Source: a virus. Taken from it: a stretch of DNA of 64,000 nt. The stretch spans positions 1 through 64,000 of IMG/VR virus record IMGVR_UViG_3300044638_004201; one strand, 5' to 3'. This document shows, in pieces, positions 1 to 44,733 of the stretch. A program made the position numbers and the translations under genes. Position 1 is the stretch's first letter, and every line of letters begins with the position of its first letter. A model generated the notes under the pieces. It saw nothing but the letters and a program-made list of their open reading frames with translations, searched no databases and was not told the DNA's origin.

Positions 1-214
1 CCACATCAAACATATTGTTCTGAACAATCAACAATAGTTTTTCTATTTCTTCATCTGTTATATCTAAAAGCAATACACCAATATAAGAATTTGCCTCATC
101 GACTGTGGCAAAGGCTTCTAGCCTAGGATCATTCTTTGAGGTGCGACTCATATCCCCTAGAGATGTAGTTCCGTCATCGCCAGTCTTTGTATAAATTCGA
201 GTTAGGTGGACCAT
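1..214 (-). CDS. pduO: PduO-type ATP:cob(I)alamin adenosyltransferase (N-terminal part; runs off window)
   Basis: Manual translation from ATG at 214: MVHLTRIYTKTGDDGTTSLGDMSRTSKNDPRLEAFATVDEANSYIG...QNNMFDV. Contains the PduO signatures IYTKTGDxGxT, VDEANS and QNxxFD. Not in the ORF track. Confidence 0.93.
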   Translation of the reverse strand, partial: MVHLTRIYTKTGDDGTTSLGDMSRTSKNDPRLEAFATVDEANSYIGVLLLDITDEEIEKLLLIVQNNMFDV

Positions 215-336
215 CAGTGTCCTGTCATTGAGCGCCAAATATCTACAGTAATTTTGTTGGCTACATACATAGTAATCAAAGTTATTGATAGTTGAAGAAT
301 AATTTCAGCAGAAGTCTTGCTTTTAGTTTTTAACAT
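214..336 (-). CDS. 40-aa putative single-pass membrane peptide
   Basis: MLKTKSKTSAEIILQLSITLITMYVANKITVDIWRSMTGH; coupled by TGATG overlaps to the genes on both sides. Confidence 0.7.
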   Translation of the reverse strand: MLKTKSKTSAEIILQLSITLITMYVANKITVDIWRSMTGH

Positions 337-788
337 CAAGGCCATTGTAGGTCTCCATTTGTAGAAAATACTAAACCTAAAGAGTCGCCTTCAGATAAAG
401 AAATTTCGTTGATTCCTGTTTGAGCCCAGCCCCACTCGTTAAAAAATGGAAGTAGTTTCTTTTCTTTTACTATGACAGCCCAGTAGGCATCTTCTGGTGG
501 CATAACTTCGCAAGTCTCTACAGATTTATCTGGAAGACCATTAAGTCTACAAATAACAGCATCACCATATTTTTGTGTGCCTTCTGTTATATAGCCAGAG
601 ATTTTTAGCAATTCTAACGCGTTTGTTTCAGCAGAAATATCTATACATTTTTCTACTTTTGTTTCAGCATTGAGAGAACCAAAATCAACATACAAGTTCA
701 CGCAATTACTGTCGGGCTTACTTAAAAAAGACAAACCAATGTAAGTAAAACTAATAATTAAAAAAGACAGTATTAGTTTATTCTTCAC
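336..788 (-). CDS. Membrane-anchored/exported protein, putative cobalamin-binding beta-grasp domain (DUF4430/SCO2322-like)
   Basis: N-terminal hydrophobic anchor; GTQKYGDAVICRLNGLP...C..MPP..AYW...W.WAQTG.....L.EGDSLGLVF pattern; GTGA overlap with RNR stop. Confidence 0.6.
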   Translation of the reverse strand: MKNKLILSFLIISFTYIGLSFLSKPDSNCVNLYVDFGSLNAETKVEKCIDISAETNALELLKISGYITEGTQKYGDAVICRLNGLPDKSVETCEVMPPEDAYWAVIVKEKKLLPFFNEWGWAQTGINEISLSEGDSLGLVFSTNGDLQWP

Positions 789-2827
789 TGGTTTTCCCTA
801 ATAAGTTTCACCTCGCAAGCGTCAGTAGTGCAGTATGCCTCACCGATAGCATCAGCCGCAAGTCCCGCATAAACTCCTGAGAAGTCAATTGGAAAGAGTT
901 TTAGAGTTCCCTCTTCTTCATATTCTTCTTCAGTGATTTGTGTGTATGGCATCTGTGGGTATGTAAAGTTTCCTGATGGAAGGAATGAAACTGTTTTTAG
1001 TTGACCATCGTAAAGATGGAGAACAGTTCCGACTGCGCTTGCTTCCTTTTCAGGGTCAAAGGAGATAGTTACTGAGACAGAGTTATCTGACCAATAGCGT
1101 TGTGCGTATGCTGCTAACGCCATCTTTTCGTAGATTGAGACATCCTTCTCAGCCCTCTTGGACTCAGACTTGATTGGAAAATAGACAACCGATGTAGTGT
1201 TCGGTGATTCCGACGCTGGTTCAACTTTGTAGTTCGCCATCTTAAATAAGGGAAGCATAGGGTCCGAATTAGCAAAGCGAATGGTACGCATAAAATACTT
1301 ACCGCCAGGAGTCCAATGTACGCCAGGACTTTCACCAGCAAGAATGGAAACCGTGCCAGAAGGCTTAATGGTTGTTGTCTTGATAGATTCACGGATTCCG
1401 AGCCATTCTGAATAAGTAGTGTCGTAATACTTAATTGTCTCGTATCCCTTGTCCATCCATTCACGAAGAAGTGGAAGACCACGGTTGTCTGCAAAGTTTG
1501 CTACGCCTGACATTGAAGTTCCAATGCGACGGTTACGCTGCATAATTGCGTTTGTCTCTGCCCAGTGGGTAGGAAGAAGTGTCACGGTTTTTGCGTAAAG
1601 ATAAGCAAACTTAAGAGTGCGCTTGTAATCTTCCAGTGACTCGTGTCGGTTGAGATATGTTTCAACAAGAGTACACATTTCGTAAGACTCAAGTGATTGC
1701 TCAGCGCAAGGGTTATAACCTTCTACACGATAATCTTTATTGTTAGGTGGGTCAACCAAACGTCCATACTGTCTAGAGACATCTAGCCAAATAACTCCAG
1801 GTTCTCCGTTGCGAGCAATACCTTCAACAATAGGGTCAAGGTTTGCGCCAACGTAAGCCTCTACAGAATTGTTAGACATCCAAGCCCAGCCAGGATTTTC
1901 TGGGTCATAAGAGTTACGCTCTGGATAAATCTCTGCGTTCTTCAAGTTCAAAAAGTCTTCGTCATCAATGCGACCAATAAGAAGTTCTGCGGAACGACGA
2001 ACGTTTCCTGATACAACGCAAACGCCAATCATATTTCCAATGTCAGCAATGTCTCTGCGAGTTACTTTCTCTCCCTTGCGACCTGCGAACAACTTAGTAA
2101 TGTGATTGTGTAAACGCTCTAACGGTTGGTGTCCTGCTGCTGTTCCTCCGAAGGTTTTGATTGGGGTGCCTTCTGGACGGACTTCTGAGTAGTCAAATAG
2201 TGGAGTCTTCTGATCTGGTCGTAGGTAAGCATTGATGATGAGTTCGAGGGATTTGACCCAACCTTCTCTGGTATCTGGGACGACATATGTTTCTTCTCCT
2301 TCTGGTTCATAGATTTGGAATTCTTTATCAGCACCCTTGTCATCAAATCCAACACCAACGCCAAGCATTGATGCTTCCATTAAAAATGTAAATGGTTTTG
2401 ATGGGTCTGCCTTACTCATTTCTTTTGTTGAAACAAATGCGCAATTTTGAAGTGCAGCAGAGTTGCGTTGAGTATTAACAATTGGAGTTCCCATAACCCA
2501 TAGACCACGTCCTGGAGGAGACCACTTCAACTCAAACAAACGCTCGAATGCTTCTTTAGCAGAAGCCGCTGCTTTAGTGTCAGACCAAGGAAGACGGTTG
2601 TTCTTAGCGTGTTCCTTCTGTAATGAATACATTCCGTTGATAACACGTTCGCATACATCAACCCAAGTTTCTTTATGTCCATCTTCTTTTAGTCGTGAAT
2701 ATGTTCGTAGAAAAGTAATTTCTCCTACAGAGTTTCCAGCAGCATCACGATAACCAAATGGTGCTTTTTTATTGCGGAAGCCCTCTACGAAATCATCAGA
2801 CAACTTGAAAGAAAATGAAACAGACAT
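785..2827 (-). CDS. nrdJ: Class II (adenosylcobalamin-dependent) ribonucleoside-triphosphate reductase
   Basis: RTYSR, PPGRGLW, LQNCAF, GNVRRSA, NPCAEQSL, TTIKPSGTVS motifs and C-terminal CTTDAC cysteine pair. Confidence 0.95.
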   Translation of the reverse strand: MSVSFSFKLSDDFVEGFRNKKAPFGYRDAAGNSVGEITFLRTYSRLKEDGHKETWVDVCERVINGMYSLQKEHAKNNRLPWSDTKAAASAKEAFERLFELKWSPPGRGLWVMGTPIVNTQRNSAALQNCAFVSTKEMSKADPSKPFTFLMEASMLGVGVGFDDKGADKEFQIYEPEGEETYVVPDTREGWVKSLELIINAYLRPDQKTPLFDYSEVRPEGTPIKTFGGTAAGHQPLERLHNHITKLFAGRKGEKVTRRDIADIGNMIGVCVVSGNVRRSAELLIGRIDDEDFLNLKNAEIYPERNSYDPENPGWAWMSNNSVEAYVGANLDPIVEGIARNGEPGVIWLDVSRQYGRLVDPPNNKDYRVEGYNPCAEQSLESYEMCTLVETYLNRHESLEDYKRTLKFAYLYAKTVTLLPTHWAETNAIMQRNRRIGTSMSGVANFADNRGLPLLREWMDKGYETIKYYDTTYSEWLGIRESIKTTTIKPSGTVSILAGESPGVHWTPGGKYFMRTIRFANSDPMLPLFKMANYKVEPASESPNTTSVVYFPIKSESKRAEKDVSIYEKMALAAYAQRYWSDNSVSVTISFDPEKEASAVGTVLHLYDGQLKTVSFLPSGNFTYPQMPYTQITEEEYEEEGTLKLFPIDFSGVYAGLAADAIGEAYCTTDACEVKLIRENQ

Positions 2828-2906
2828 AGATATGCTCCCTTAGTAATTACGAATTTGTTTTTTCGTCTATGGTATTTCGAACCCTAGACGTAAATTTTAC
2901 AGCGTC

Positions 2907-3134
2907 TTAGAACAACTCAGGTTGCTCTTCTGAAGCCTTTCCCTCTTTATGTAAGTCTAGTACTACAGCAAGACCGAGTTCCATTCCAGAAATGAAATGA
3001 TTCGTTACTCCACGAGAGCGTGCTTGTTCTATTTTTTGTTCTATAACTTCAGCAATTTTATGTCTCGTCTCATATTCAATACGAGTCCTGTGTTGGTCAT
3101 AACTGCTCCAAGTAAAGGCTGTGTCTTCAGACAT
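2907..3134 (-). CDS. Hypothetical protein
   Basis: ORF overlapping the upstream stop, co-oriented in the operon. Confidence 0.6.
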   Translation of the reverse strand: MSEDTAFTWSSYDQHRTRIEYETRHKIAEVIEQKIEQARSRGVTNHFISGMELGLAVVLDLHKEGKASEEQPELF

Positions 3135-3450
3135 CAAATATCTGTCCTTCCGTCGCTAGTAGTTCTTGAAGTAATCTAACAGGAATACCGCACTGGGTCG
3201 CAACTGCAACTTCAAGTTGAGCCCCTGTGGATAACTCCCATCCTGGAAGTAAAGCAACTACATCTGATTTCAAAAGTTCTTCAATGTCTTTTCGCATATA
3301 AACTTCTTTTGGTAGGTCTGTTGCTCCCTCAAATGCTTCTGACGGATCAAATACAAAGTGCCCTAAATCTCGTAAAGTTTTAGATGCTTGTCTAAAAGCA
3401 GGGTAGTTGTATTCAGGGATTCCTGTCATCGGTCCCGATAAATAAATCAA
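3127..3450 (-). CDS. DUF4406 / nucleoside 2-deoxyribosyltransferase-like protein
   Basis: IYLSGPMTG..YN..AF...LPGWE.S.GA.LE motif; probable TTG start at 3450 after AAGGAG. Confidence 0.8.
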   Translation of the reverse strand: MIYLSGPMTGIPEYNYPAFRQASKTLRDLGHFVFDPSEAFEGATDLPKEVYMRKDIEELLKSDVVALLPGWELSTGAQLEVAVATQCGIPVRLLQELLATEGQIFDV

Positions 3451-3458
3451 TGTTCTCC

Positions 3459-3719
3459 TTAGTGAGGTGGGTGCGTAGCAAGCAGAATATCTTGGTAGTC
3501 GCACTCTCCGCAATAGATTGTTTCAGCAGACGGGTCTTCTAAATCTAGACACAAAAACAAAGAGCCTTCAATCTCTGTGCTATCTGGCAGATTCAATTTC
3601 TCTACCTCTGTAAGCCACGCCTTTACATCACTTATGGAAAGTGCTTCTCCATCTTCGGCTTTGGCAAAGATAAAAACACTTGCTGACTTCTTTATGTTGT
3701 TCTTAATTTTCTTGGACAT
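3459..3719 (-). CDS. Hypothetical protein with C-terminal CxxC
   Basis: ORF in operon; CGEC motif. Confidence 0.55.
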   Translation of the reverse strand: MSKKIKNNIKKSASVFIFAKAEDGEALSISDVKAWLTEVEKLNLPDSTEIEGSLFLCLDLEDPSAETIYCGECDYQDILLATHPPH

Positions 3720-3906
3720 CTTCACCCGTAGTTTCATAGCCAACTGGAAAACTGGCTGCAAAAAATGCTAGGCAGTCAGTAGAGTGAAAGTACCTTACTT
3801 GGTTGCCCCATACAAGAACCATTATCCCTGAGCCACTTACATTTGCCCTAGTGTGAGACGGACAGCCTTCCCAACTGCAACGGATAGTCAGAGTCGGTGA
3901 GGTCAC
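3703..3906 (-). CDS. Small Cys/His metal-binding protein
   Basis: CSWEGC...YFHSTDCL. Confidence 0.5.
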   Translation of the reverse strand: MTSPTLTIRCSWEGCPSHTRANVSGSGIMVLVWGNQVRYFHSTDCLAFFAASFPVGYETTGEDVQEN

Positions 3907-3942
3907 TAGATAATCTTAACAGTTGAGGGTAGACTTTCGGCT

Positions 3943-4602
3943 ATGACAACACGCTCTGACATTTTGATAGCAACTCCTGGACATTCAGCAAAAATGGAGT
4001 ATGTAAAAAGCCTTGTAAAGACTTGTAAAGCCTTAGATGAAAGAGGGCTGACATATCGCTTTATTTCGCAGTATTCATCATTTGTGCCAACCGCCAGAGA
4101 ACTAACTGCTTTAGACAGCACGCAACACGACTTCGGAACAACTTCGGTTGCTGGGGGCTGGGATTATAAAAAGATTATCTGGATTGATTCAGATATAGAA
4201 TGGGAGCCTGAAGACTTCCTAAAGTTGTATGAAAGTGATTTGGATATTGTCTCTGGGCTTTATCAGTTGGACTGGGCTGGAACTGTGGCTGTGAATTACC
4301 CTAATGAGTATGGGGCGCCAACAAGGGTCAATAAGGTTGAGTTCCTGCTCCACGATGCCCCTGTAGAGGTCGGTGGGGTGGGGTTTGGGTTTGTGGCTAT
4401 CAAGGCTGGGGTCTTTGAAAAGATGGCTAGACCTTGGTTTCTAATCAACAGGGTTCAATGGAGCCCCTTAAATCCTGACCTGAAAGTCAATGTTGGGGAA
4501 GATTATTCTTGGTGTGCCAATGCTTCAAGGGCTGGTTTTAAGATTTTTGTAGACCCTCTGGTCAAGGTAAAACACCATAAAGAAACTGTCTACGAGGTTT
4601 GA
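3943..4602 (+). CDS. Glycosyltransferase (GT-A fold)
   Basis: WIDSDI (DxD), GFGFVAIK..VFE and GEDYSWC motifs; TAGACT -10 just upstream suggests a leaderless start. Confidence 0.8.
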   Translation: MTTRSDILIATPGHSAKMEYVKSLVKTCKALDERGLTYRFISQYSSFVPTARELTALDSTQHDFGTTSVAGGWDYKKIIWIDSDIEWEPEDFLKLYESDLDIVSGLYQLDWAGTVAVNYPNEYGAPTRVNKVEFLLHDAPVEVGGVGFGFVAIKAGVFEKMARPWFLINRVQWSPLNPDLKVNVGEDYSWCANASRAGFKIFVDPLVKVKHHKETVYEV

Positions 4603-12863: not shown

Positions 12864-13919
12864 ATGGAAACTATGAAAGAGCGTTATGCTTCACTTAGTC
12901 CAAATCTCACACCTACATTGTGGGAAATGATTATTGAAGTTGCCACACAGGGAGTAAATGAAAATGCTTCACTTACACTCAACGCAAGCGTTGCCCCACA
13001 GGGTCGCTATGTTGAAAGAGCGATTGGTTCAGAGCGTGCGCCAAGAAACTCCAAACTGAAAATGGAACTTCCAAATGTTGAAGGACTTATTGGTGCGGAA
13101 ACTTACCTGCGTCCAAATGGTTCTGCCTACCACGCTCGTATGTGGGGAGAACACAAAGATGTGGAAGCCCTACGCAAAGCACGAGAAGCAACAACTCAAT
13201 CTGTTCTTACAGGTGTTGGTTCTCCAATGTTCCCACTTCTTTATGGTGCGCCGGGGTGCGGAAAAACTGCGCTAGTTGAAGCGTCTTATGGAAATGAAGT
13301 TATTACTCTTATGGGTAATGGCGACATTGAAGCCTCTGACCTAATTGGTTCTTATGTCCAAACTCCAAGTGGAAACTTTGAGTGGATTGACGGCGGACTA
13401 ATTCGGGCTATGGAAAATGGTTGGGTTTATTTCATTGACGAAATTGGTCTGATTGACCCAAAGGTTCTCGCACTTGTTTATGGTGCTATGGACGGACGCC
13501 GAGAAATTGTTATCACTACAAACCCTGAGAGAGGTGTTGTCAAGGCACACGAAAACTTCTTCGTAGTTGCAGCGACAAATCCAAATGCTCCCGGAGTTCG
13601 TCTAAGTGAAGCGTTAGTATCTCGCTTTACTGTTCAGGCAGAAATGACAACTGATTGGGCACTTGCTCGTAAGTTAGGTGTGCCAACACTTTTGGTAACT
13701 TCTGCTCAAAATCTTTATCGCAAACAACTTGCTAGAGAAGGTGTTTCTTGGTCTCCACAAATGCGAGAACTTCTTGCGTTTAGAGACATAGCAATAACTT
13801 TCGGAACTTCGTTTGCGCTTTCCAACCTGATTGCTTCTGCCCCTGAAAACGATAGGGCAGTTGTCGCAGATGTTTTGTCTCGTGCCTTCGGGGAAGAGAT
13901 GAAACCAGCCAAAATCTAA
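12864..13919 (+). CDS. MoxR-family AAA+ ATPase (CbbQ/NorQ/CobS-like)
   Basis: Walker A GAPGCGKT, DLIG, Walker B YFIDEI, AATNP, ALVSRF. Confidence 0.9.
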   Translation: METMKERYASLSPNLTPTLWEMIIEVATQGVNENASLTLNASVAPQGRYVERAIGSERAPRNSKLKMELPNVEGLIGAETYLRPNGSAYHARMWGEHKDVEALRKAREATTQSVLTGVGSPMFPLLYGAPGCGKTALVEASYGNEVITLMGNGDIEASDLIGSYVQTPSGNFEWIDGGLIRAMENGWVYFIDEIGLIDPKVLALVYGAMDGRREIVITTNPERGVVKAHENFFVVAATNPNAPGVRLSEALVSRFTVQAEMTTDWALARKLGVPTLLVTSAQNLYRKQLAREGVSWSPQMRELLAFRDIAITFGTSFALSNLIASAPENDRAVVADVLSRAFGEEMKPAKI

Positions 13920-14083: not shown

Positions 14084-15862
14084 ATGGCTCATCTAAAAAT
14101 GGGTGAAACCAAAGCACAGGCTACTCCTGTTGAGTGGCTCAAAGTTGGTAGAGACATTGGCTACATGGCTAACAAGTGGTCTCTACGAGATGATTTAGTT
14201 GCGTATGTTGGTCCGGGTGCTGGTGGTCCGGCACCTGCGTGCTACTCACCTACACAAGCAGAAGTTGAAGTAAATGTTGATGTTGCGTTTGCTAAAGGTA
14301 TTACACCTGAGGAAATTGGCGACATAACACTTCGCAAAACACAATACGAGTTTCCTAAGGCGACAGGTGCGATTATGCACGAAGCCTTCCACGCTCGCTT
14401 CTCACAATGGTCTATGCCTAAGGCGTATGAGGAATTAGAGAAGGACGAATACAACGCACTTATTCTTTTAGAGGAAAGTCGCATTGAGTATCAAGGTGTC
14501 AAGTCTCTATCTATCGCTCGTCCTTTCCTTCGTGCTTGCGCTATGGAAATTGTTATTGGCGATACAAAAGAAGGTATGGAAAACGAAACACAAACACAAT
14601 CGCTAACTAATTTAGTTGGTCTTGTCTTTGCTCGCATTGACGCAGGTATCTTAGATGAACACGAAGTCTTTGCGATTACAGAAATGATTACAGACCAACT
14701 TGGTGTAGATGTTGTTGAGCAACTACGAACAATCGCTCGTTCAGCACAAATGCACGACAACCACAAAGACGCCACAGAACTTTATCCACTAGCAAAAGAG
14801 TGGGCACGAATTGTTCGTGAAACTGCTAAAGAGCGTGGAGATGAACAAAAGCCTGAAGGTAACAAAGGTATTCCTTCTGAAATCATGGAAGCAATCATGG
14901 AAGCGTTGTCTGAGGCTTCAGATGAAGTAATGGCAAACAACTTCTCCGACTTGGGCGACCAAGAGCAGGGTGAGGACATGAGAGAGGAAGTCAAGGCAAA
15001 AGCCTCTGACGCACAAGAGCAAAACGAAAATCGTGAAATTGCTAATCAAGTGTTCTCTAAATCTTCAGGGCCGGGGCAATCAAAAACCAATAGCAAGTTG
15101 ATTGAACAACGCCAACCAACAAGTGAAGAACTATCTGCCTCTGTTCGTATTGGACAATGGTTAGAGAAAGCAAAGTATCGTGAGCGAGATGAACTACAAA
15201 TCGCAAGCGTGCTTCCACCCGGACGCCTTCGCACTAGAGCAATCGTCCAAAATGCAGCCTTGAAATCTCGTGGAGTAAATCAGCGAGTAGAGCCTTTCCG
15301 TAGAACTGTTCGCAAACACACAGACGACCCAACACTCAATGTTGGAATTATGGTCGACATTTCAGGTTCAATGGGAAGTGCTATGAACCCTATGGCTACA
15401 ACTGCGTGGGTAATGGCTAACGCAGTAAATCGTATTCAAGGAAACTGCGCTATGGTCTATTACGGAAATGATGTGTTCCCAACTCTAAAGGTTGGACAAA
15501 AACTTTCTGAAGTAAATGTTTATTCTGCTTCGGACGGAACTGAGAAGTTTAGTAAAGCGTTCTCAGCATTGGAAGGCGCACTTAACTTACTTCACGGAAA
15601 TGGCGCAAAGTTGTTGGTAATTGTTTCGGACGGAGAATACACTTCAGATGAAACAAGAAATGCCAAAGAGATTGTTGCCAAATGTAAAGAGGCAGGTGTC
15701 GCAATTTTATGGCTACCTTTTGATAATGGCAGAAGTGCGAAAGCGATTGGTGGAGATTATGCCGAAGTTGTTTTGGACATAAGCCGACCTGCGGAAGCCT
15801 CTGAAATTATTGGTCGTTCAGCAGAAAAAGTAATGACGAGAATTGGGCAACGAGTGGCGTAA
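14084..15862 (+). CDS. vWA-domain protein with N-terminal HExxH metallopeptidase-like domain (CobT-like MoxR partner)
   Basis: HEAFH, LEESRIE, MIDAS DISGSM, IVSDG. Confidence 0.88.
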   Translation: MAHLKMGETKAQATPVEWLKVGRDIGYMANKWSLRDDLVAYVGPGAGGPAPACYSPTQAEVEVNVDVAFAKGITPEEIGDITLRKTQYEFPKATGAIMHEAFHARFSQWSMPKAYEELEKDEYNALILLEESRIEYQGVKSLSIARPFLRACAMEIVIGDTKEGMENETQTQSLTNLVGLVFARIDAGILDEHEVFAITEMITDQLGVDVVEQLRTIARSAQMHDNHKDATELYPLAKEWARIVRETAKERGDEQKPEGNKGIPSEIMEAIMEALSEASDEVMANNFSDLGDQEQGEDMREEVKAKASDAQEQNENREIANQVFSKSSGPGQSKTNSKLIEQRQPTSEELSASVRIGQWLEKAKYRERDELQIASVLPPGRLRTRAIVQNAALKSRGVNQRVEPFRRTVRKHTDDPTLNVGIMVDISGSMGSAMNPMATTAWVMANAVNRIQGNCAMVYYGNDVFPTLKVGQKLSEVNVYSASDGTEKFSKAFSALEGALNLLHGNGAKLLVIVSDGEYTSDETRNAKEIVAKCKEAGVAILWLPFDNGRSAKAIGGDYAEVVLDISRPAEASEIIGRSAEKVMTRIGQRVA

Positions 15863-35322: not shown

Positions 35323-38300
35323 GTGAGCAGAATTCGCAGACTAAGTCACGCAATTTCAGAAGAGGGACGTCGCTCTCAATCAATGAGCCAGGCTCTTCGT
35401 ATTCGTGAGTCAGCACTTTCTGTAATTGAACAGGCGAACACAAATGCTAATACTTCTCGCCGTATCACAAAGAAGGCAGCATTTACTGTAGTTCTTCGCT
35501 CACTTCAAGCAACACGTCATCTTCCATTCTCACTACGTGAGCATATGGCTTTGAAGGAACTTACTCAGTACATCAACCTTGCTCAAAACAATAAGAACAA
35601 CTCTTTAACTCTTTCACACACAGATTTACTTCCAATCTCACACCCACGCTCAACTCGTGACCACTCTCTTACAGCATCTGCTTTAGAATCTTCTCGTGCT
35701 CGTTGGTTTGTTGATGACGCACGAATTACAGATGAACGTGCACGAGTAATTCTTGCATCAGCACTTACTTCAGAGTTTGGCTCTGTAGAACACACTTACT
35801 ACAACTCAATTCTTGCTGGTCTACCACAAGGAACTTTGCCAACCGAGACATTGCTTGCTGCTATGGGCGATGGAAATTCTCCAATTGCTCGTTCTCTTCG
35901 TGCAAAACTACAACGTCGTGACCGCAAAGGTCGATTCGCATACCAAGGCGGAGGTCTTCGTGCTCTAGTTCGTCGTGCTGGAAAAGTATTTAGCGTTGTT
36001 GGTAAAACTCTTATGGACTCCAATGATGGAGAAAATGTTCTTGTAGAACTTCCAGATGGTCGAATTGCTAAAATTCCACCTTCAAAGGGCGAGTTCGTAA
36101 AAGCAATCCTTAATCCAACTGCTGACGGATTTAGCAAAGCACCAGTTCGTTATTCAGTTAGCGATGATGTAATAAACGAAGAAGATATTGAATTTGTTGA
36201 AGCACCAGACGGCTGGGAAAAATTAGGTGGCTACACTTGGAAGAATGAAGAGTGGAGAGTTACTAAGGATGATTTTGGTAATCTAACTGCAAGCAATGGC
36301 AAAGGCCCAATTATCGATGCCAAATCTTGGTCAGAGATTTTAGATAAGATTGATGAAATTGATAAGCCTTCTCAGGAAACAGAATTTCCAGAAGCAAAAG
36401 AACAACAAAAACAAAAACAAGAAATTATAAAACCTAAAGAAAAAGCAGCGGCTTTTGCTTTTGCTATTCCTGAAGGCGCAAAAATAATTAACCCAGATTC
36501 ATCATATGACCCTGAAGGTCGTATTGATGAAGAGTCAACAGATTTTACTGATGACCCTGTAGAACTTGCACAAAAGTATGACCCTCGTGATTTAGTTGCT
36601 GCTTTAGAAGAAGCAGTTATTCCAAAAGAAGATGGCGAAAACGCAACTGGCTATGGAGCACTTGGTTTCAATAACGGAGACGAGTTTGTTCCAGCAGAAG
36701 CATTGTTTTTTGCTCTTCAAGAGGCTGGCGAAGATGCTCCTCTAGAACTTGCAAGAATCTACGACAAAAAACTTGGAACTAAACAAAACGAAGAAGCACT
36801 TGCTGACTTCCGTAAGGGCTCAGAGAATGTTAGTGGACCTAATCCAGATATTGCTGAAGCGTTTGAAAGAACTATTGAGCGCGACGCAGATGAGGCACCA
36901 GCAGCAGAGATTCCAGATTTCAATAAAGAAGAGATGGACCTAGTTCCACTTCCAGTTGTATTAGATGGTCTTGGCGAAGCCGAGATGGCTGAATTTATGA
37001 AAACTAAAGACCACACTCCTTATCTTCCAAAAAATGATGATATTGATATGCCAGCGGGATATCACAAAATCAATCCTGAGCCATACCAAAACTGGAAAGA
37101 AGTTACTGAAGAAGACCAGAATGAAAATCTTCCAGTTGGATTTAGCGACAACCCTGTTTTCTTGGCGCAGTCTGTTGAAAAAGAAAAACTTGTTGAAGAA
37201 CTAAAGCGTGGTATTGAGCCAGGTAATCCAATTCCAGGACACGCAAACGTGTCTATGAAAGATGATGATGGCGAAGAGTTTGTAGCAAACGTTCCTGTAG
37301 AAGCAGTGCGTGATGCTTTACAACTTCTTGGAGAAGATACAAACGCACTTGTTAAGTCAATTGCTGATGAAGGATTTGTTGGACAAGAAGAGCAACAAGC
37401 AGAACTTCCTCTAGACCTTCCAACTGAAGCAAAGCCAATGAATGCTTACGAGCGTTTGATGGCAGAGCAAGCAGCAGAAAGAAAGGCTGTCGAAGACCGC
37501 ATAGCAGAACTAAAAGCCAATGCTGAAGCCCGTGTTGATGACCAAGGACGTAATGTTCCTGAGGGTTGGGGAATCTCACAAACAGTAGGAAGAATGTTTG
37601 GCCGTGCTCTTCCAGAAAACTATAACAACGTTTATGGTTTGAATAACTTTGAAGCATCTACTGATAAAGATGGAAAGATAACTGTAAAAGACCGCAATGG
37701 TCTTGTTGAACCAAAGACTTATGAAAACTGGGATGAAGTACAGGCAGACCTAGATGCTCGCAAGGCAGAGTATGCAAAAGCATCTCGTGAAAAAATTAAA
37801 GAGTTTGCTAAAGGCTATGGTTTTTCTGACGAACAGATTGCCGCTTTTGATTCAATGACTCAAGCGGAGATTGCAGATTTCTTCGCTAACCCAGATAACC
37901 ATACAGAAGCCTACAAGAGCGCTTTAGATGATTTTGAAACATCATGGGCAGTTGATATGCCTCGTCCTGCTCAAAGAGAACGCTGGGCAGCCTTTGGAAA
38001 AGAAAAGCGTATTTCAGAACAGGCTGGAGATTTCCCAGATGGAAATGCACCAGTTGCAGAACTTCCAGTTGCAGCAGAGCGCAAGCCAGGCACTGCTACA
38101 GAAGGTGAAAAAGGTTTAGACATTGTTTCTGTTCCAGAAAACAAAAACATTAGACCAGCAGCCCCAGATGATTTTGAGGTTGATGGATTACAAGAGATTC
38201 CAGACGGATTTGAAGAATATCCAGCGGCAGCAAACGTTGCACCTGCTCCAGCCCCAGGGGACGGTGGAGATGGACCAACACCTCCAGGTGGAAATGGAAA

Positions 38301-41300
38301 TAGACCACCAATTCGTATTACTGTAAAAGCAAAAGACATTTTGCCTGGTGATATTACTGTTGGCGACCATTTTGTAATTACAGAAGTTGGCGAGAAAGTT
38401 CCAGGAACAGATCGCATAAAGATTAAGGGTTACTACCCAGGCCATGTCGAACAAGATACAAAGCAGTGGAATGAATGGCGTGAGATTCCAGTAATTCGTG
38501 GCGCACAGGCTCCTGAAATGGGAGACCTACCAGTTCTTTCTAAGCCAAAAGAAAAAGATTTTGGTCGCAGAAAGAAAAACGCAGATGGCTCTTGGGGATT
38601 TGCTAAGGCAGAAGACCAAGCAGCCTTTGATGCTGCTCGTGCTGACTACGACATACAACTAGACGCAGCAAAGAAGCGTTTTGTTGACCCAACAGAACCA
38701 GCAAACCAGCCACATCGTGTTATCTCTCGTGCTGCTGATTTGAAGGCTGGAGATGTAACTACAGACCCTAAGAAGGGTCACTTTGTAATTGAAAGAATTT
38801 TTGTTGACGAAAACACAAAGCCAGAGTTTGTCAGTGTTGAGGGTTACTACCCAGGACACGTCACTCAAAGAAAAGAGTGGAAGGCAAACGGCCCTATCGA
38901 TGTTATTCGTAACGTTGAACCACCTGCAAAGGGTGATTTAGAAGAGTTACACCAACCTCACAACGTTGTTGATGGTAAATGGCGTCCAGATAAGGACCCT
39001 GCCAAGCGTGCAGAGCATCAGAAGAAACTTGATGAGGCCGCAGCCTTGTGGCAAGCACCAGCAGACCTTCCAGTTATTAACCAGAAGGATAATGTTGCAG
39101 AGCAAGATAAAGATATTCCTAATGCTGTCGCTGTGCGACGCCCTACACCTCCACGTCAGATTGAAATGCCAGCCTTCCAAGGTGATATGGCTGCAATTGC
39201 TCGTGAAGCAGGTGGAGACTGGAATAAGTTCCGTGAACTTCTTAAGGATAAAGATTTAGTCTTCTTTGATTTTGAAACAACTGGAGTAGATCCAGAAGAT
39301 GGCAACGAGCCATGGCAAGTTGCTGGTGTTCGTGTTCGCAACGGTGAAATTATTGACCGCGTAAATATTTTTATGAACCCAGGTCGCTCTATTGCTGATA
39401 CATATGCTGGTCGTGATACAGATGGAATCCCTAACGCTGTAGATGACAAGGGCAACAAACTCAATGATGATTTCTTAGGTCAGCAACCAAACCAAGAAGA
39501 TGCAATGCGTCAGTTCTTGGAGTGGGCAGGACCAAATGCAATCTTCGGCGCACAAAATATGGTTTTTGATGATGAAGTTGCTCGTCGTCTTGCTGACCGT
39601 CATGGTCTTGACTGGGCTCCAGGAGGTCTATTAGACATTCTGCCAATGGCACGAGACATCTTCAAAGACCAACCTAAGGAAAACCGTCCTCAGGCTCCTA
39701 AGGGCCGTAAAAATCATTACGCTTTAGGAAACCTTGCTAAACATCTTGGCGTTGACTTAGAAAATTGGCACGCAGCAGATGCTGATGCAGAAGCAGCAGC
39801 AAAGATTTTCAATGCTCTTATTGACAAGGGAATTGAACTTGATGCTGGTAAAGATTTGTTTGATGTCGATGCTCGCAACGATGAGTATGTGGCAAAGATG
39901 GATGGATATAACGCAGCCTTCGATGCTTACGAAGGACAACTTGCTGAATACGCTGCTGCTAAGGCAATGCGAGATGGTCTCAATGGCAAGCCCGTAAACA
40001 CTGATGGTGCTGTAAAAGATGCTGTTGGTACTCCAAACCCTGGCGAAAATATTGATGCTGGTCCTGTCGGCCTTGAGCCAGAACCAGTTCGTGCTCGTGA
40101 TGAAGTTGTAGTTCTTGATTTCACACCTAACACGATGTTCCCTCAAGGAAAGATGAGAATGATGGACCGCGACTGGGTGCTTAACCCAGACAACGCCGTT
40201 CTTCTACCTCGTGAAAATATTCGTATGCGTGATTTACTTCCTGGAGACTTTATGTCTTCTAAGGATGGAAACATTATCTGGCAAGTAGTTGCTCTTCGTG
40301 GTGGAGAAGAGTTTGGTCTTGAGCCAGGAAAAGTTAGAGTTTATCGACGTAATATTGAAAACGGAGAAGTTTCTACATACGAACATTTCCATACAGTGTT
40401 CTTAGACGGAGTTCGTCGTCCTAAGAATCCAGAAGATTTGAATGTTCCAGAAGTTATGCCAGAAGGTGAAGCAGCACCGTTTATTGCTAACGACCCTGTT
40501 GATTTAGATAAGAATGCAGAAGAGGTAGGAGCAGAGAGAATTTGGCTTGATGCTTTTGGTCTTCCAGGCATTGGCATTGGCACAATTATTATTGATAAGA
40601 CACCTGGAGGAAGATTTGCACTTCGTGCACTTATCCACAATAGCGATGATGGAAATGAAATCTACAGAGTAGAAGAAGAGTACAGAACTGCTGAAGGTGC
40701 TAAAGCAGAGGGTGAAGCACTTATCAAACTTCATGCAAAAGATTTGCTTGACCAAAAGCGTAAGGAACAAGCAGAGCCAGAAGAGGCACGAGCAAAAGAT
40801 GTTCCTATTGCTCGCGGAGACATTCCAGGCGATGCCAACAATGCCCCACAAATTATTGAAGTACAAGACCTACCAGACAATCTTGCTGGAGACATCAAGA
40901 TTCAAAACGTTGGCGACGAGAAGCCAGACTTCCAAGCAGACGCTGTTGTTCGTGACCTTGACGGAGATTTGTTAGCAAATCAGACTACAAATCATCCTGA
41001 CAAAGATAAGGCAGAGAAAGAAGGCCGCGAGTTTATTGCTCGTGTAGTTGACGCTCTTCAAAATCCAGAACAACCAGTAGAAGATAAAGATGCGCCAAAG
41101 AACATTAATGGAAGACCTGTTGGCACTAAAGCCCGCGTTAAATTTATACCGAGTGCTCCTGGAGTTCCTCCACGAGAAGAAGTTTATATTCTTCAAGAAG
41201 ATGGAAAGTGGAAGAACGAAGAAACAGGTGCAGTAAGAGATGAACTTCCTAAAGCCTGGTCTGCTGAAAAAGATGGTTTTGGACGCGGAGGATATAACGA

Positions 41301-44300
41301 ACCTGTATTTGAAGAGCCAAAGAAGAAGAAAAAGAGAGAGCCAAAACCTCTATCTGAAGATGCAAAAGCAAAAATTGAAGAAGAAAAGGCAAAAGAAAAA
41401 GATAACGCTTGGGTTGAGGAAAACGCTGGTCGTTTAGCACCTATTGAAGCCCAAGAAGTTCAAGTTGGCGATTTCTTCTGGTCTCCATTCTGGGGTAACT
41501 TCGAGGAAGTTCTTGCAGCACGCTACATCGGTGTCCTTGATAGGTATGAATTCATGATTCAAAACCGTGTCAATGGAAGAATTGAACCTCGCTACTTCAA
41601 GGCTGACTCACCGCTTCGTAACATTCGTCGTCCTGGTGTTGAAGATCAAGAGTTTGAAATTATTGATGAGCCAAAGGGAACAAAAGCAGTTCCTGGAGCA
41701 AAGCGTGGACAAATTAAGCGTAAGCCTCTTGGAGAAAGAATTGTTGCTAAAGAGGGTCGCCCAATGGGTGGAAGATATAAAGAAGAAGGATTCTACGAAG
41801 ATAGAAATGGCATTGCCCTACAAGAGGGAGATGTTGTTCGCTTCAAGGACCCAGTAAAAAATGCTAAGTGGGGCCGTGGTGTTGTAAAGGCTCGTATGGG
41901 CGCACAAGTTGAAGAAGGTCAAAAGGCTGGTGGTCAAGGCCGTAAAGGAGTTATTTACCTAGACAAACTTATCATTCAATTTGAAGGTGAAGATGAAAAA
42001 TGGGCATTCCGTCAAGGTGGCCGTGAACTGAAGGGTAGAAATCTTATTCTTCAAAAGGGAGATAACACTGACATTGTTCTTCCTGATTTCCGTGGACCAA
42101 AAGCAAAGCCAGTAGATCGTGGACTTGGCATTGAAGGTCCTGGCGGACGTGTTGTAAAAGAGCCTAAGGTAGAGCCAGCATTACCTAAAGCAGAAGACGA
42201 CCAAAAGGCTAAAAAACTTAGAGCAAAAGAATTAGGACGTCAAGCATTTGCTAGAGGTGGTAGAGGAAATCAACTACCAGCAAACGACAAAGAGTTTATG
42301 GAAATGTGGGAGTTTGGACCTGCTGGACCTAATAAGGCTGAACTCTGGAACGAATGGCTTGCAGGGTTCCAAGAAGCAAAAGATGGGGCACCTGTTGATG
42401 TAGAGCCACAAGAACCAGTACGGGCTCAGGGGCAAAGGATTCGTGCTTTAGTTGACCGAAACCTAGGTAGAGACAAAGAAGAAGATTTGAAAGAGCAAAT
42501 TGAGCAAGCAATTGCTGATGGAGATGCTATTGCTTTTATGTACAACGGAAAAGCAAGAAACTTTACTCCTAAGCGCGTCTGGGTAAATCCACAAAATGGA
42601 AATGTAAATGTTGGTGGCTTTGAAGGTGGCCAAATGAAAAACTTTACAATTCAAAAAATGGACTTTATGCCAACTGATGAAAATGGAATTGTAGAAGGTA
42701 TTCCAGTAGAGGCTCCAGCCGCAGATAAGCCTGATGCTGATGCTGCTGATGCCAAATTAGAAAAATTCAAGGCTGACTTCGGGAACAAGTTTGACGACCT
42801 TGAGAATAGGGAAAATGTTGTCGCTGGGCTTCAGCAAATTGCTGATGCTCTTCCAAAAGCAAGAAACTACAAAGCCGCGTTAAACTTAAGAAACGCTCGT
42901 CAAGCACTAGATGATATTAATTCTAAATTTGCTGGAGGCGCTGGTGTAGACGAAATAAGCGAATACAATTTAGATGCAGCAATTCGCCGTTTGAGAAGAG
43001 AATCTAATGATGCTTTTGCTCAAGATGCAGCGGATAAACTTGAAAAAATATCTAAAGAGATAAAAGCAAAACGTCAAGAACTTGTCAACAAGAGACTTGC
43101 TGCACCGCTTCCTGAACTCCCTGAGCCTAAGGGCGTAGACAAAGATGGAATGAAGAATGTTATCAATGAGATTATTCAAAGACTTCCAGAGTATGGAGAC
43201 TATAACGCACGGAAGTCTGCTAATAGAGATGCTGGCATACAGAGAGATGCACTAAGAAAATATCTTAAGTCTATAGATCAAGATATGCTTGATTTGGATG
43301 ACATCATTCATTCAGACTTAGAAGAAATCGCTAATGCTTTAAGAAGAGTCGCTAGTGTAGAAGCAAAGGACGGCAATCAGCCTAATGCTGATAAGTATGA
43401 AAACTTTGCTGACATATTAGATGGCTACCGCACAGAGTTAGAAAGTCGCGGTGGCGGTCCAGTAGTAAAGCAACCATTAAATAATCTAGACCCTGAAGAA
43501 GTAGCAAAGCAAAGAATTGCTGATAAGGCAAACGAGTTTGCTCCTGTAGAAAAACTTCAAGCATTTATGGCTGATGATTTGAATGTTGATAACGACAGAC
43601 TTCTTCAACCATTCAAAGATGAATTACAAGAGTTTTTTGCCAACGGCGACCCTAAGCCACTAGCAATGTTAACTCCCGCTGCTCGTCAAGCACTTGGTTT
43701 TTTTGTTGGTAAGGCGCTGAAAGATTCTAATAATCCAGTTGATCCAGACAAGAGCGAAGAGGTAGTTAATAATCTTGGTGATTTGGCTGTACAACTTCAC
43801 GCTGAAAGACTTGCTTTTACTCCTAACGCTCCTGATTTAGGGGTTGGCGATGCTCTTCTTGATATGGACTTTTCAAAGATAAAAGAACTAGGAGACTTCC
43901 TATACAGGAACAGAGTTGAAAGAGATGTAAAACTAAAAATAAACGGTCAAGACACTGGATTCAATATAAAAGTAGCAATCGATGAAGATAAAGGTGTAAA
44001 CACAACTTATTTCATAACTCATAGAGCGTCTGGTCGTAAGTTTGTTATGAAGTTAGACACTATGGTTGGAGAGCGTGGTGCTGACGCAGAAATTGCATCA
44101 GCGGCCCTTAATCGTGCTTTAGGAAACATTGGCGCTTATCAAGTATTCCGTCATAGGAGTAGAAGAGATGTAGTTGTCACATCCTGGGCTGGAGAAATGG
44201 TTGACTTTGAGTCAGAGCCAAAGCGTATCGGAGACACCAAGTACCTAAGACAACATGAACAAGCCGCGATGAACGGTGCTTTTGTAGATGTTATTGGACT

Positions 44301-44733
44301 TGCTATTATGGATGCAATTCTTATCAATGGTGATAGACATAGAAATAATCTCCTTGTAGGAAAAGTAAAAAATCTTGATGGTGTAAATGCAAATGACGAC
44401 ACCGAAGCAGTTCAATTTATGGCTGTTGATCACGGACTAGCGGGACTTATCGTCAAAGGCGGAATGATGTCTCCAGACGATTACATCCAAGGCGCTGACA
44501 GTGACGATAGTCATAGAAGAGCAATAAATATTGCTTCTCAACTTGTCGACAAAATTGGCGTTGATTTGTACAAACGAATTAATGATATGACCATACAGCA
44601 AGCAGTTCAAGCACTAGAACGAGAGCGCGGAAAAGACATTACTGACGCTGATTTAGATGCAATAATTAAAAGACTAGAACTTCTTCGTGGAATTGATAAT
44701 TCCAAGTGGAAGCGCATATTGAGGAAAAGATAG
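35323..44733 (+). CDS. Giant polyvalent virion protein: repeats, DEDDh exonuclease, WYL-like domain, C-terminal HipA/PI3K-like kinase
   Basis: DFETTG / NxxFD / HxAxxD at ~39250-39830; IAFMYNGKARNFTP...MKNFTIQKM at ~42500-42670; FVMK, E, DRHRNN, VDHG at ~43960-44730. Confidence 0.8.
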   Translation: MSRIRRLSHAISEEGRRSQSMSQALRIRESALSVIEQANTNANTSRRITKKAAFTVVLRSLQATRHLPFSLREHMALKELTQYINLAQNNKNNSLTLSHTDLLPISHPRSTRDHSLTASALESSRARWFVDDARITDERARVILASALTSEFGSVEHTYYNSILAGLPQGTLPTETLLAAMGDGNSPIARSLRAKLQRRDRKGRFAYQGGGLRALVRRAGKVFSVVGKTLMDSNDGENVLVELPDGRIAKIPPSKGEFVKAILNPTADGFSKAPVRYSVSDDVINEEDIEFVEAPDGWEKLGGYTWKNEEWRVTKDDFGNLTASNGKGPIIDAKSWSEILDKIDEIDKPSQETEFPEAKEQQKQKQEIIKPKEKAAAFAFAIPEGAKIINPDSSYDPEGRIDEESTDFTDDPVELAQKYDPRDLVAALEEAVIPKEDGENATGYGALGFNNGDEFVPAEALFFALQEAGEDAPLELARIYDKKLGTKQNEEALADFRKGSENVSGPNPDIAEAFERTIERDADEAPAAEIPDFNKEEMDLVPLPVVLDGLGEAEMAEFMKTKDHTPYLPKNDDIDMPAGYHKINPEPYQNWKEVTEEDQNENLPVGFSDNPVFLAQSVEKEKLVEELKRGIEPGNPIPGHANVSMKDDDGEEFVANVPVEAVRDALQLLGEDTNALVKSIADEGFVGQEEQQAELPLDLPTEAKPMNAYERLMAEQAAERKAVEDRIAELKANAEARVDDQGRNVPEGWGISQTVGRMFGRALPENYNNVYGLNNFEASTDKDGKITVKDRNGLVEPKTYENWDEVQADLDARKAEYAKASREKIKEFAKGYGFSDEQIAAFDSMTQAEIADFFANPDNHTEAYKSALDDFETSWAVDMPRPAQRERWAAFGKEKRISEQAGDFPDGNAPVAELPVAAERKPGTATEGEKGLDIVSVPENKNIRPAAPDDFEVDGLQEIPDGFEEYPAAANVAPAPAPGDGGDGPTPPGGNGNRPPIRITVKAKDILPGDITVGDHFVITEVGEKVPGTDRIKIKGYYPGHVEQDTKQWNEWREIPVIRGAQAPEMGDLPVLSKPKEKDFGRRKKNADGSWGFAKAEDQAAFDAARADYDIQLDAAKKRFVDPTEPANQPHRVISRAADLKAGDVTTDPKKGHFVIERIFVDENTKPEFVSVEGYYPGHVTQRKEWKANGPIDVIRNVEPPAKGDLEELHQPHNVVDGKWRPDKDPAKRAEHQKKLDEAAALWQAPADLPVINQKDNVAEQDKDIPNAVAVRRPTPPRQIEMPAFQGDMAAIAREAGGDWNKFRELLKDKDLVFFDFETTGVDPEDGNEPWQVAGVRVRNGEIIDRVNIFMNPGRSIADTYAGRDTDGIPNAVDDKGNKLNDDFLGQQPNQEDAMRQFLEWAGPNAIFGAQNMVFDDEVARRLADRHGLDWAPGGLLDILPMARDIFKDQPKENRPQAPKGRKNHYALGNLAKHLGVDLENWHAADADAEAAAKIFNALIDKGIELDAGKDLFDVDARNDEYVAKMDGYNAAFDAYEGQLAEYAAAKAMRDGLNGKPVNTDGAVKDAVGTPNPGENIDAGPVGLEPEPVRARDEVVVLDFTPNTMFPQGKMRMMDRDWVLNPDNAVLLPRENIRMRDLLPGDFMSSKDGNIIWQVVALRGGEEFGLEPGKVRVYRRNIENGEVSTYEHFHTVFLDGVRRPKNPEDLNVPEVMPEGEAAPFIANDPVDLDKNAEEVGAERIWLDAFGLPGIGIGTIIIDKTPGGRFALRALIHNSDDGNEIYRVEEEYRTAEGAKAEGEALIKLHAKDLLDQKRKEQAEPEEARAKDVPIARGDIPGDANNAPQIIEVQDLPDNLAGDIKIQNVGDEKPDFQADAVVRDLDGDLLANQTTNHPDKDKAEKEGREFIARVVDALQNPEQPVEDKDAPKNINGRPVGTKARVKFIPSAPGVPPREEVYILQEDGKWKNEETGAVRDELPKAWSAEKDGFGRGGYNEPVFEEPKKKKKREPKPLSEDAKAKIEEEKAKEKDNAWVEENAGRLAPIEAQEVQVGDFFWSPFWGNFEEVLAARYIGVLDRYEFMIQNRVNGRIEPRYFKADSPLRNIRRPGVEDQEFEIIDEPKGTKAVPGAKRGQIKRKPLGERIVAKEGRPMGGRYKEEGFYEDRNGIALQEGDVVRFKDPVKNAKWGRGVVKARMGAQVEEGQKAGGQGRKGVIYLDKLIIQFEGEDEKWAFRQGGRELKGRNLILQKGDNTDIVLPDFRGPKAKPVDRGLGIEGPGGRVVKEPKVEPALPKAEDDQKAKKLRAKELGRQAFARGGRGNQLPANDKEFMEMWEFGPAGPNKAELWNEWLAGFQEAKDGAPVDVEPQEPVRAQGQRIRALVDRNLGRDKEEDLKEQIEQAIADGDAIAFMYNGKARNFTPKRVWVNPQNGNVNVGGFEGGQMKNFTIQKMDFMPTDENGIVEGIPVEAPAADKPDADAADAKLEKFKADFGNKFDDLENRENVVAGLQQIADALPKARNYKAALNLRNARQALDDINSKFAGGAGVDEISEYNLDAAIRRLRRESNDAFAQDAADKLEKISKEIKAKRQELVNKRLAAPLPELPEPKGVDKDGMKNVINEIIQRLPEYGDYNARKSANRDAGIQRDALRKYLKSIDQDMLDLDDIIHSDLEEIANALRRVASVEAKDGNQPNADKYENFADILDGYRTELESRGGGPVVKQPLNNLDPEEVAKQRIADKANEFAPVEKLQAFMADDLNVDNDRLLQPFKDELQEFFANGDPKPLAMLTPAARQALGFFVGKALKDSNNPVDPDKSEEVVNNLGDLAVQLHAERLAFTPNAPDLGVGDALLDMDFSKIKELGDFLYRNRVERDVKLKINGQDTGFNIKVAIDEDKGVNTTYFITHRASGRKFVMKLDTMVGERGADAEIASAALNRALGNIGAYQVFRHRSRRDVVVTSWAGEMVDFESEPKRIGDTKYLRQHEQAAMNGAFVDVIGLAIMDAILINGDRHRNNLLVGKVKNLDGVNANDDTEAVQFMAVDHGLAGLIVKGGMMSPDDYIQGADSDDSHRRAINIASQLVDKIGVDLYKRINDMTIQQAVQALERERGKDITDADLDAIIKRLELLRGIDNSKWKRILRKR

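Follow-up and report, generated by a model that had tools for sequence, protein, structure and literature searches.

We analysed a 64,000-nucleotide (nt) stretch of viral DNA, positions 1 to 64,000 of IMG/VR record IMGVR_UViG_3300044638_004201 (hereafter the window), which opens on its minus strand with a compact cassette of four overlapping genes centred on a vitamin B12-dependent type of ribonucleotide reductase (RNR). The source contig is linear, 73,789 bp long and estimated in IMG/VR to be 55% complete, and the window starts at its base 1, so that the last gene of the cassette runs off the contig end. In the order in which they are read, the four genes are as follows (aa, amino acids; HMM, hidden Markov model).

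785–2827, minus strand: nrdJ, ribonucleoside-triphosphate reductase (RTPR)-type class II RNR, 680 aa, assigned by HMM and structure–sequence match.
336–788, minus strand: 150-aa anchored protein, a putative corrinoid binder, assigned by model fold and distant-family matches.
214–345, minus strand: 43-aa single-pass membrane micro-peptide, with an alternative start at 336 that would give 40 aa.
1–214, minus strand: 5′ part (71 codons) of the gene for a PduO-type ATP:cob(I)alamin adenosyltransferase, assigned by PF01923 and TIGR00636 matches.

Open reading frames and junctions both bear out the row of four overlapping minus-strand genes (nrdJ, the 150-aa gene, the peptide gene and pduO) described in the initial annotation of this DNA. 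As read from the sequence, the nrdJ stop and the start of the 150-aa gene share a GTGA at 788–785; the 150-aa gene ends with TGA at 338–336, and the peptide stop and the pduO start overlap as TGATG at 216–212. Every downstream start in the cassette is preceded, at 5–7 nt, by a Shine–Dalgarno-like motif: AGGGA (799–795) before the GTG at 788, GGAG (356–353) before the peptide ATG at 345 and AGGA (223–220) before the pduO ATG at 214. Together, the stop/start overlaps and these motifs strongly support translational coupling of all four genes. An open-reading-frame list made at default settings (60-aa minimum, no open ends) would leave out the last two genes, which the initial annotation gave as missing from its list. 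The peptide had originally been placed at 214–336 as a 40-aa product. Its gene is real, and the start needs revision: we prefer the ATG at 345, because GGAG lies 7 nt upstream of it and the ATG at 336 has no such motif, and because many homologues begin with MAL or MAV at the same 10-nt overlap with the binder gene, so that the peptide is most likely 43 rather than 40 aa long. Promoter and terminator scans of window positions 1–4300, and of a related 134-kb viral contig that carries the identical four genes in identical order (L002, used below as the reference for a complete PduO), returned fewer sites than shuffled sequence, and operon boundaries could therefore not be placed.

The identity of NrdJ is the firmest point of the cassette. 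The protein scores 346.8 bits against the RTPR model TIGR02505, above its curated equivalog cut-off of 340.05, matches the phage RNR family phrog_367 (E=3.9e-138) and aligns to the Lactobacillus leichmannii RTPR structure 1l1l with E=2.6e-98. The thiyl-cysteine motif NPCAEQ...C of NrdJ stands opposite NPCGEI...C of 1l1l (NPCAEQSLESYEMC aligned to NPCGEISLANGEPC), with the cysteine 11 residues after the NPCxE motif retained as in 1l1l, and the equivalent of C119 is kept within NC(A/W)FV (LQNCAFV aligned to LNNCWFV of 1l1l). We take C408, C419 and C119 of the L. leichmannii enzyme to be its thiyl-radical and redox-pair cysteines. Among phage proteins, the RTPR of Actinomycetia phage DSL-LC01 is 77% identical. 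These data strongly support the assignment of NrdJ as an RTPR-type class II RNR whose catalytic cysteines are intact. The family requires adenosylcobalamin; with a score above the TIGR02505 cut-off and conserved catalytic cysteines, the original description of nrdJ as encoding a B12-dependent RNR is supported.

At the other end of the cassette, the PduO fragment matches PF01923 (E=1.2e-20, covering only profile positions 1–68 of 171) and TIGR00636 PduO_Nterm (E=1.6e-16). It contains TKTGDDGTT, within TRIYT(K/R)TGDDGTT, a segment that is aligned to M. tuberculosis PduO in the L002 orthologue. T(K/R)xGDxGxT is the N-terminal ATP-binding motif of PduO enzymes, which convert cob(I)alamin and ATP to adenosylcobalamin. 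The gene is cut short because the window begins at contig base 1, not by mutation. The L002 orthologue is complete at 187 aa, covers PF01923 positions 1–170 of 171 (E=1e-61) and aligns end-to-end with M. tuberculosis PduO (2g2d, 6wgs; E=4e-64, ∼63% identity), from which the cassette copy differs in being phage-encoded. The adenosyltransferase call at 1–214 is thus upheld by the two family matches and the full-length orthologue, and the objection that pduO might be a pseudogene beyond the edge falls away, since the contig end accounts for the truncation and relatives carry the full 187-aa copy. Two lineages of PduO occur among the cassettes.

187-aa form: L002 8575–9138, the type of the window's close relatives, whose proteins are 71–84% identical to the L002 copy.
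∼172-aa form: L005 8563–9081 and L103 8563–9084, 46–49% identical to the L002 copy.

The Pfam alignment of the shorter form points to the loss of about 25 residues from its interior. The genes found 3′ of pduO in relatives encode WhiB, Hsp20, dCMP deaminase and a methyltransferase, with no transporter or flavin reductase gene beside pduO in these relatives. One phage lineage has a 1,155-aa open reading frame without Pfam match directly 3′ of pduO (L005 9116–12583, plus strand).

Between the two enzymes lies the 150-aa protein. A profile of its family gave only chance-level matches to PDB sequences (E≥0.18), and tblastn of the protein against 50,697 deposited phage records found nothing. The family is well populated in metagenomes, with 221 matches at 90% clustering, several of them on contigs of 110–134 kb. 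Its invariant positions are C29, C48, C80, C93 and W119-G-W121, together with an MPP motif. With 17 homologues as input, AlphaFold2 (pLDDT 76) predicts an N-terminal helix at residues 3–22 followed by a β-grasp domain at residues 28–147. When the model was compared exhaustively with 48,161 PDB representatives using VIA-align, the top five chains were 2bb6, 5no0, 4kkj, 2pmv and 3u7z (Z=10.3–9.3; 89–96 aligned residues), that is, bovine and human transcobalamin, haptocorrin and intrinsic factor, matched in their β domains only, plus 3u7z. A gap separates these from the next match, a generic β-grasp protein at Z=5.9, and the Foldseek top list agrees with that of VIA-align. The entry title of 3u7z, which we take to be a DUF4430 structure, reads ‘putative metal binding protein’.

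Searching 1.84 billion representatives with a profile of the phage binder family yielded 377 relatives, which connect the protein to described bacterial families. Counting matches at E≤0.01 rather than by curated cut-offs, 27 of 48 sampled relatives matched the NCBIfam model NF040672 (SCO2322_fam), one matched DUF4430 (PF14478) and one Cobalamin_bind. Several of the sampled relatives are fusions to SCO2321-type membrane domains or to prenyltransferase/squalene-cyclase toroid domains, the latter being the fold class of the transcobalamin α domain. The model thus supports a transcobalamin-type β-grasp (SLBB) fold for the 150-aa protein. That it is anchored or exported by its N-terminal hydrophobic helix, with the domain probably extracytoplasmic, is strongly supported, because a basic N terminus precedes the hydrophobic helix and because the four invariant cysteines are common to bacterial lipoprotein homologues. 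Its binding of cobalamin we infer from fold and context. The notion of a membrane-anchored β-grasp protein of the DUF4430/SCO2322 kind, with which the 336–788 gene had been introduced, agrees with the fold match (Z=9.3–10.3) and with the distant relatives in the SCO2322 family; the anticipated likeness to the transcobalamin β domain was found in structure, and a direct match to the DUF4430 HMM was not.

To place the cassette we used a synteny set of 80 viral loci with 45 distinct binder sequences, 47–87% identical to the binder of the window. Binder and peptide occur together in all 80, and pduO follows directly in 77. Directly upstream of the binder gene stands an RTPR-type nrdJ (59–94% identity) in 32 loci and another class II RNR (28% identity) in 2, so that a class II RNR is adjacent in 34 of the 80; one further locus has nrdJ 6 kb upstream. 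The complete order nrdJ–binder–peptide–pduO is found in the window and 29 further loci, and three loci (L127, L129 and L131) have nrdJ, binder and peptide only. In other lineages the trio of binder, peptide and PduO sits in a replication module among genes for Pol III alpha, RecA, a 2-oxoglutarate oxygenase, a Cas4-like nuclease and RuvC. On each of the five long contigs without an adjacent RNR, a class II-like RNR (30% identical) is encoded at another place. What stays constant is thus the unit binder–peptide–PduO, which travels with viral class II RNRs, and the proposed conservation of the linkage to class II RNR is borne out in this form: adjacent in 34 of 80 loci, encoded at a distance in five of five long contigs. 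In Actinomycetia phage DSL-LC01, small hypothetical genes follow the RTPR gene and neither binder nor PduO was matched; the PduO matches among deposited phage records came from unrelated records. The cassette is accessory. A search for ECF (energy-coupling factor) transporter or flavin reductase genes, suggested at the outset, gave none beside the cassette in relatives and none of ECF type in a set of five phage contigs that includes two of at least 92% completeness; neither CbiQ/EcfT nor an ATP-binding cassette (ABC) ATPase was found in that set.

The micro-peptide is as constant as the binder. Its reading frame is intact in all 80 loci (41–57 aa, 44 distinct sequences), lying between the binder gene and pduO wherever the latter is present. 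Depending on the locus, the overlap between its start and the binder stop is 4 or 10 nt long (10 nt in the window), and its stop overlaps the pduO ATG as TAATG or TGATG in most. All versions share a basic N terminus, one hydrophobic transmembrane helix and a C-terminal ...D(I/V)WRS(L/M)(T/R)GH, of which W, R, G and H are invariant across the 44 sequences. Over the last 29 codons, the ratio of nonsynonymous to synonymous polymorphism (pN/pS) is 0.42 in the peptide's own frame and 1.0 and 2.0 in the other two. The peptide is thus a real gene under purifying selection and not a chance reading frame. Its tail is more than a ribosome-binding site for pduO, because WRSLTGH is also conserved in the three loci of a phage lineage without pduO (L127, L129 and L131, 8399–8527). 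Scans against Pfam, NCBIfam and PHROG assigned the peptide to no family, a motif search of all six frames of 80 bacterial loci did not find its C-terminal motif, and no longer protein containing it (fused to binder, PduO or a transporter) was found, the last being weak evidence. By the positive-inside rule both membrane proteins are predicted to lie N-in, C-out, which would place the histidine-terminated tail of the peptide on the same side as the β-grasp domain. Co-folding of binder and peptide scored 0.00 in a run without controls, which weighs neither for nor against binding. The role of the peptide is the least supported step of what follows; it may be an adaptor to a host transporter or a second ligand-contacting piece. 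In L005 (8456–8587) and in L006, which has the same sequence, the peptide frame is intact and has ATA at the position of the ATG start in close relatives (L132); a non-canonical start, or one disabled recently, may account for this.

The nearest cellular homologues of the binder, at 35–42% identity, belong to Microbacteriaceae (Aurantimicrobium, Aquiluna, Pontimonas, Cryobacterium and Agromyces), with more distant ones in Intrasporangiaceae; a class-level genome survey found a homologue in 20 of 401 genomes. The Microbacteriaceae proteins are lipoproteins, with an L-x-G-C lipobox and linker and the same four cysteines as the phage binder. In Aurantimicrobium and Aquiluna, the lipoprotein gene is followed by that of a 580–600-aa protein that combines a membrane region at its N terminus with two ECF/CbiO-type ATPase domains and from this domain make-up is a predicted EcfT–EcfA–EcfA′ fusion, then by that of a 240–273-aa multi-pass membrane protein, with metH (B12-dependent methionine synthase) convergent. 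None of nrdJ, the peptide gene or pduO lies near the homologue in 80 bacterial loci. In four small freshwater Microbacteriaceae genomes with this lipoprotein–ECF–metH locus (G006–G009; lipoprotein loci L017 and L036), neither a PduO-type (PF01923) nor a CobA-type (PF02572) adenosyltransferase was detected; in these bacteria imported B12 appears to serve methionine synthase alone.

All 45 phage binders group in a single clade (support 100/99) in a maximum-likelihood tree, on a long stem that arises among Microbacteriaceae sequences. Descent of the binder from actinobacterial SCO2322-type lipoproteins is strongly supported by these sequence comparisons, and the tree is compatible with one capture followed by remodelling, in which a transmembrane helix would have replaced the lipobox and the peptide been added. 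The initial call of an actinophage is likewise sustained by the nearest phage being Actinomycetia phage DSL-LC01, by a WhiB gene beside the cassette in L002 and by the position of the binder clade within Microbacteriaceae. As to habitat, 14 DNA sequencing runs hold at least 74% of the sampled words of the region, 13 of them labelled lake water or freshwater metagenome and one ‘metagenome’. These runs represent 14 studies from 2016 to 2025, and two of the runs may stem from the source sample. Contigs assembled from four metatranscriptome runs span parts of nrdJ and positions 98–291, but not the 150-aa gene, and allow no inference on transcription.

On this evidence we consider it probable that the four genes form a phage-borne cassette for the capture, activation and use of cobalamin in a freshwater actinobacterial phage. 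The binder and the 43-aa peptide would sit on the outer face of the host membrane, catching external corrinoid during infection, and the binder would pass it to the host's own ECF-type importer, the phage bringing no transporter motor. The host would reduce the imported cobalamin, the phage PduO would then adenosylate it, and NrdJ would use the resulting adenosylcobalamin to supply deoxyribonucleoside triphosphates for phage DNA synthesis. As first proposed, such a supply might be of advantage where hosts or waters are poor in B12. The presence of PduO could be explained by streamlined hosts in which methylcobalamin for MetH is the sole use of B12 and which themselves lack an adenosyltransferase: we hypothesize that the phage carries PduO with its adenosylcobalamin-dependent RNR because its hosts, if like G006–G009, cannot make adenosylcobalamin. 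A bolder version, which we regard as rather doubtful, is that the β-grasp protein and the His-tailed peptide make up a minimal, virus-invented two-piece corrinoid receptor, in which the end of the peptide would complete the site and dock the binder onto the host ECF importer, and a MetH-only host would be rewired to make adenosylcobalamin. The invariant ...WRSxTGH end might then serve as an axial or lid contact, substituting for the absent α domain of transcobalamin.

Several observations weigh against a capture–activation–use cassette. The route of the corrinoid across the membrane is left unexplained by the phage genes, which include neither an S-component nor a motor. The cassette is dispensable for RTPR phages, because DSL-LC01 has the same RTPR without it. 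Scans of the 150-aa protein itself gave no match in Pfam, NCBIfam or PHROG at E≤0.1, and it did not reach the DUF4430, Cobalamin_bind or SCO2322 HMMs, and a common fold is no proof of a common ligand. The argument from a host without adenosyltransferase is a hypothesis built on surrogate genomes, and the integrity of the window's pduO, of which 71 codons are seen here, is assumed from relatives. At gathering thresholds, Rfam found no cobalamin riboswitch or other family in the window or in nine bacterial loci.

A different division of labour would confine B12 to the cytoplasmic half of the cassette (PduO feeding NrdJ) and make the binder–peptide pair a surface mimic of the host's B12-capture lipoprotein that occupies or masks the ECF uptake system, for example to keep out superinfecting phages for which this system is the receptor, or to modulate the host. 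This would suit a phage protein derived from a host surface lipoprotein family that has lost the lipobox and gained both a transmembrane anchor and a phage-specific peptide without cellular counterpart, in a pair unaccompanied by transporter genes; B12 uptake proteins such as BtuB are, moreover, phage receptors in other bacteria. We nevertheless think it improbable, given that the pair is coupled translationally to pduO in 77 of 80 loci, that a class II RNR co-occurs wherever this could be judged and that the core of the domain (four cysteines, aromatic WGW) is as conserved as in the cellular homologues, which fits retained ligand binding. In another alternative the ligand of the β-grasp protein is not complete cobalamin: it might be a corrinoid precursor such as cobinamide, a metal, or some soluble molecule of an unrelated kind, and the cassette would serve a different salvage step. 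In its favour, the soluble ligands of SLBB domains are diverse (PMC1796856), the annotation of 3u7z names a putative metal-binding protein, ECF-CbrT transports cobinamide too (PMC5997447) and sequence identity between binder and transcobalamin is only 14–17%. This alternative is unlikely, however, since the best structural matches are all corrinoid carriers, complete cobamides are what every genetic partner uses, in the phage (PduO, NrdJ) as in cells (metH), and no genes for lower-ligand or nucleotide-loop assembly were seen near the cassette.

That the cassette is a moron, a piece of bacterial DNA carried along passively and playing no part in infection, is hard to reconcile with its being intact in 80 loci at 48–100% protein identity, with the purifying selection on the peptide and with the conserved start–stop overlaps. 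In addition, none of the 80 bacterial loci has the binder–peptide–PduO arrangement, and the phage binders are a single long-stemmed clade. Two observations are what passive carriage would lead one to expect: the closest described phage lacks the cassette despite having the same RTPR, and the genomic place of the cassette differs between phage lineages. We nevertheless give this explanation very little credence.

The closest known system to the proposed capture–activation–use cassette is the nrdJ–cbrS–cbrT–pduO cluster of Lactobacillus delbrueckii, which pointed the way to the ECF-CbrT B12 importer (PMC5997447, citing Rodionov et al. 2009). The logic is the same, with a B12-dependent RNR first, PduO last and membrane or uptake parts between; however, the phage version is virus-borne and has, in place of a CbrT-like six-helix S-component and an ECF module, a transmembrane-anchored SLBB protein and a single-pass 43-aa peptide. 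Transcobalamin-like SLBB proteins encoded in CbiO/CbiQ operons were predicted to scavenge B12 (Burroughs et al. 2007, PMC1796856), a prediction with which the ECF and metH neighbourhood of the Microbacteriaceae lipoproteins agrees. With these bacterial SLBB proteins (DUF4430/SCO2322) the phage binder shares the fold, a distant family relationship, the predicted extracytoplasmic site and the four cysteines. It differs in having an uncleaved-looking transmembrane or signal helix where the cellular proteins have lipobox and linker, in being 35–42% identical to them and missing the curated HMMs, in its constant pairing with a peptide absent from cellular loci and in being coupled to PduO and NrdJ, whereas the cellular protein is coupled to a transporter. 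In animal B12 carriers the α (toroid) domain supplies half of the binding site. The phage protein resembles the β domains of transcobalamin, haptocorrin and intrinsic factor (2bb6, 5no0, 4kkj and 2pmv; Z=9.6–10.3 over 89–96 residues, root mean square deviation 2.3–2.8 Å), but is 14–17% identical to them, membrane-anchored and devoid of an α domain, and its ligand is putative. Earlier reports of phage class II RTPRs (PMC10547690; DSL-LC01, OQ999401, PMC10611076) concern the same RNR type and describe the RNR alone; DSL-LC01, for all the 77% identity of its RTPR, has neither binder, peptide nor PduO.

Searches of the literature on SCO2322, on DUF4430 and phage, and on auxiliary-metabolic cobalamin adenosyltransferase brought up no account of a binder/PduO cassette carried by a phage. 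The uptake-cluster logic of nrdJ...pduO was known before; what is new here is its carriage by viruses and the combination of an SLBB binder with a novel peptide. Many aquatic viruses encode class II (RTPR) RNRs, which make their DNA synthesis dependent on B12, a scarce vitamin that members of the plankton trade with one another. The authors of a 2023 study on RTPR-encoding virioplankton could do no more than speculate that such viruses may enhance B12 uptake (PMC10547690); for this idea the cassette offers a genetic candidate that is concrete, widespread and open to direct testing. If our reading is right, vitamin acquisition and cofactor activation would join the auxiliary metabolic functions of phages, with a bearing on B12 fluxes in lakes, and experiments on the cassette would open up the uncharacterised SCO2322/DUF4430 family of bacteria as well as a minimal domain for B12 binding. 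The two-piece receptor, if true, would mean a new class of viral devices for taking up vitamins and a new family of functional micro-proteins.

Elsewhere in the window, an AAA_5 ATPase gene (12864–13919, plus strand) and a gene for a von Willebrand factor A (VWA)-domain protein (14084–15862, plus strand) were considered as CobS/CobT, because the CobS/CobT pairs that are often annotated in aquatic phages have just such neighbouring AAA_5 and VWA genes. No NCBIfam CobS or CobT model matched either protein, and a link of this pair to cobalamin is therefore unsupported; the AAA_5 protein is of the MoxR/dynein type and its 592-aa neighbour carries the VWA domain at its C terminus. Just upstream of nrdJ, on the same strand, lies a gene for a DUF4406 protein (3127–3513, minus strand; nucleoside 2-deoxyribosyltransferase-like, E=2.9e-24), which may belong with nrdJ to one nucleotide-metabolism transcription unit running from about 3906 to the contig end. 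The structural region contains two giant open reading frames (35323–44733, plus strand, 3,136 aa; 45807–50546, plus strand, 1,579 aa) and a gene for a Dit-like tail protein (60954–62111).

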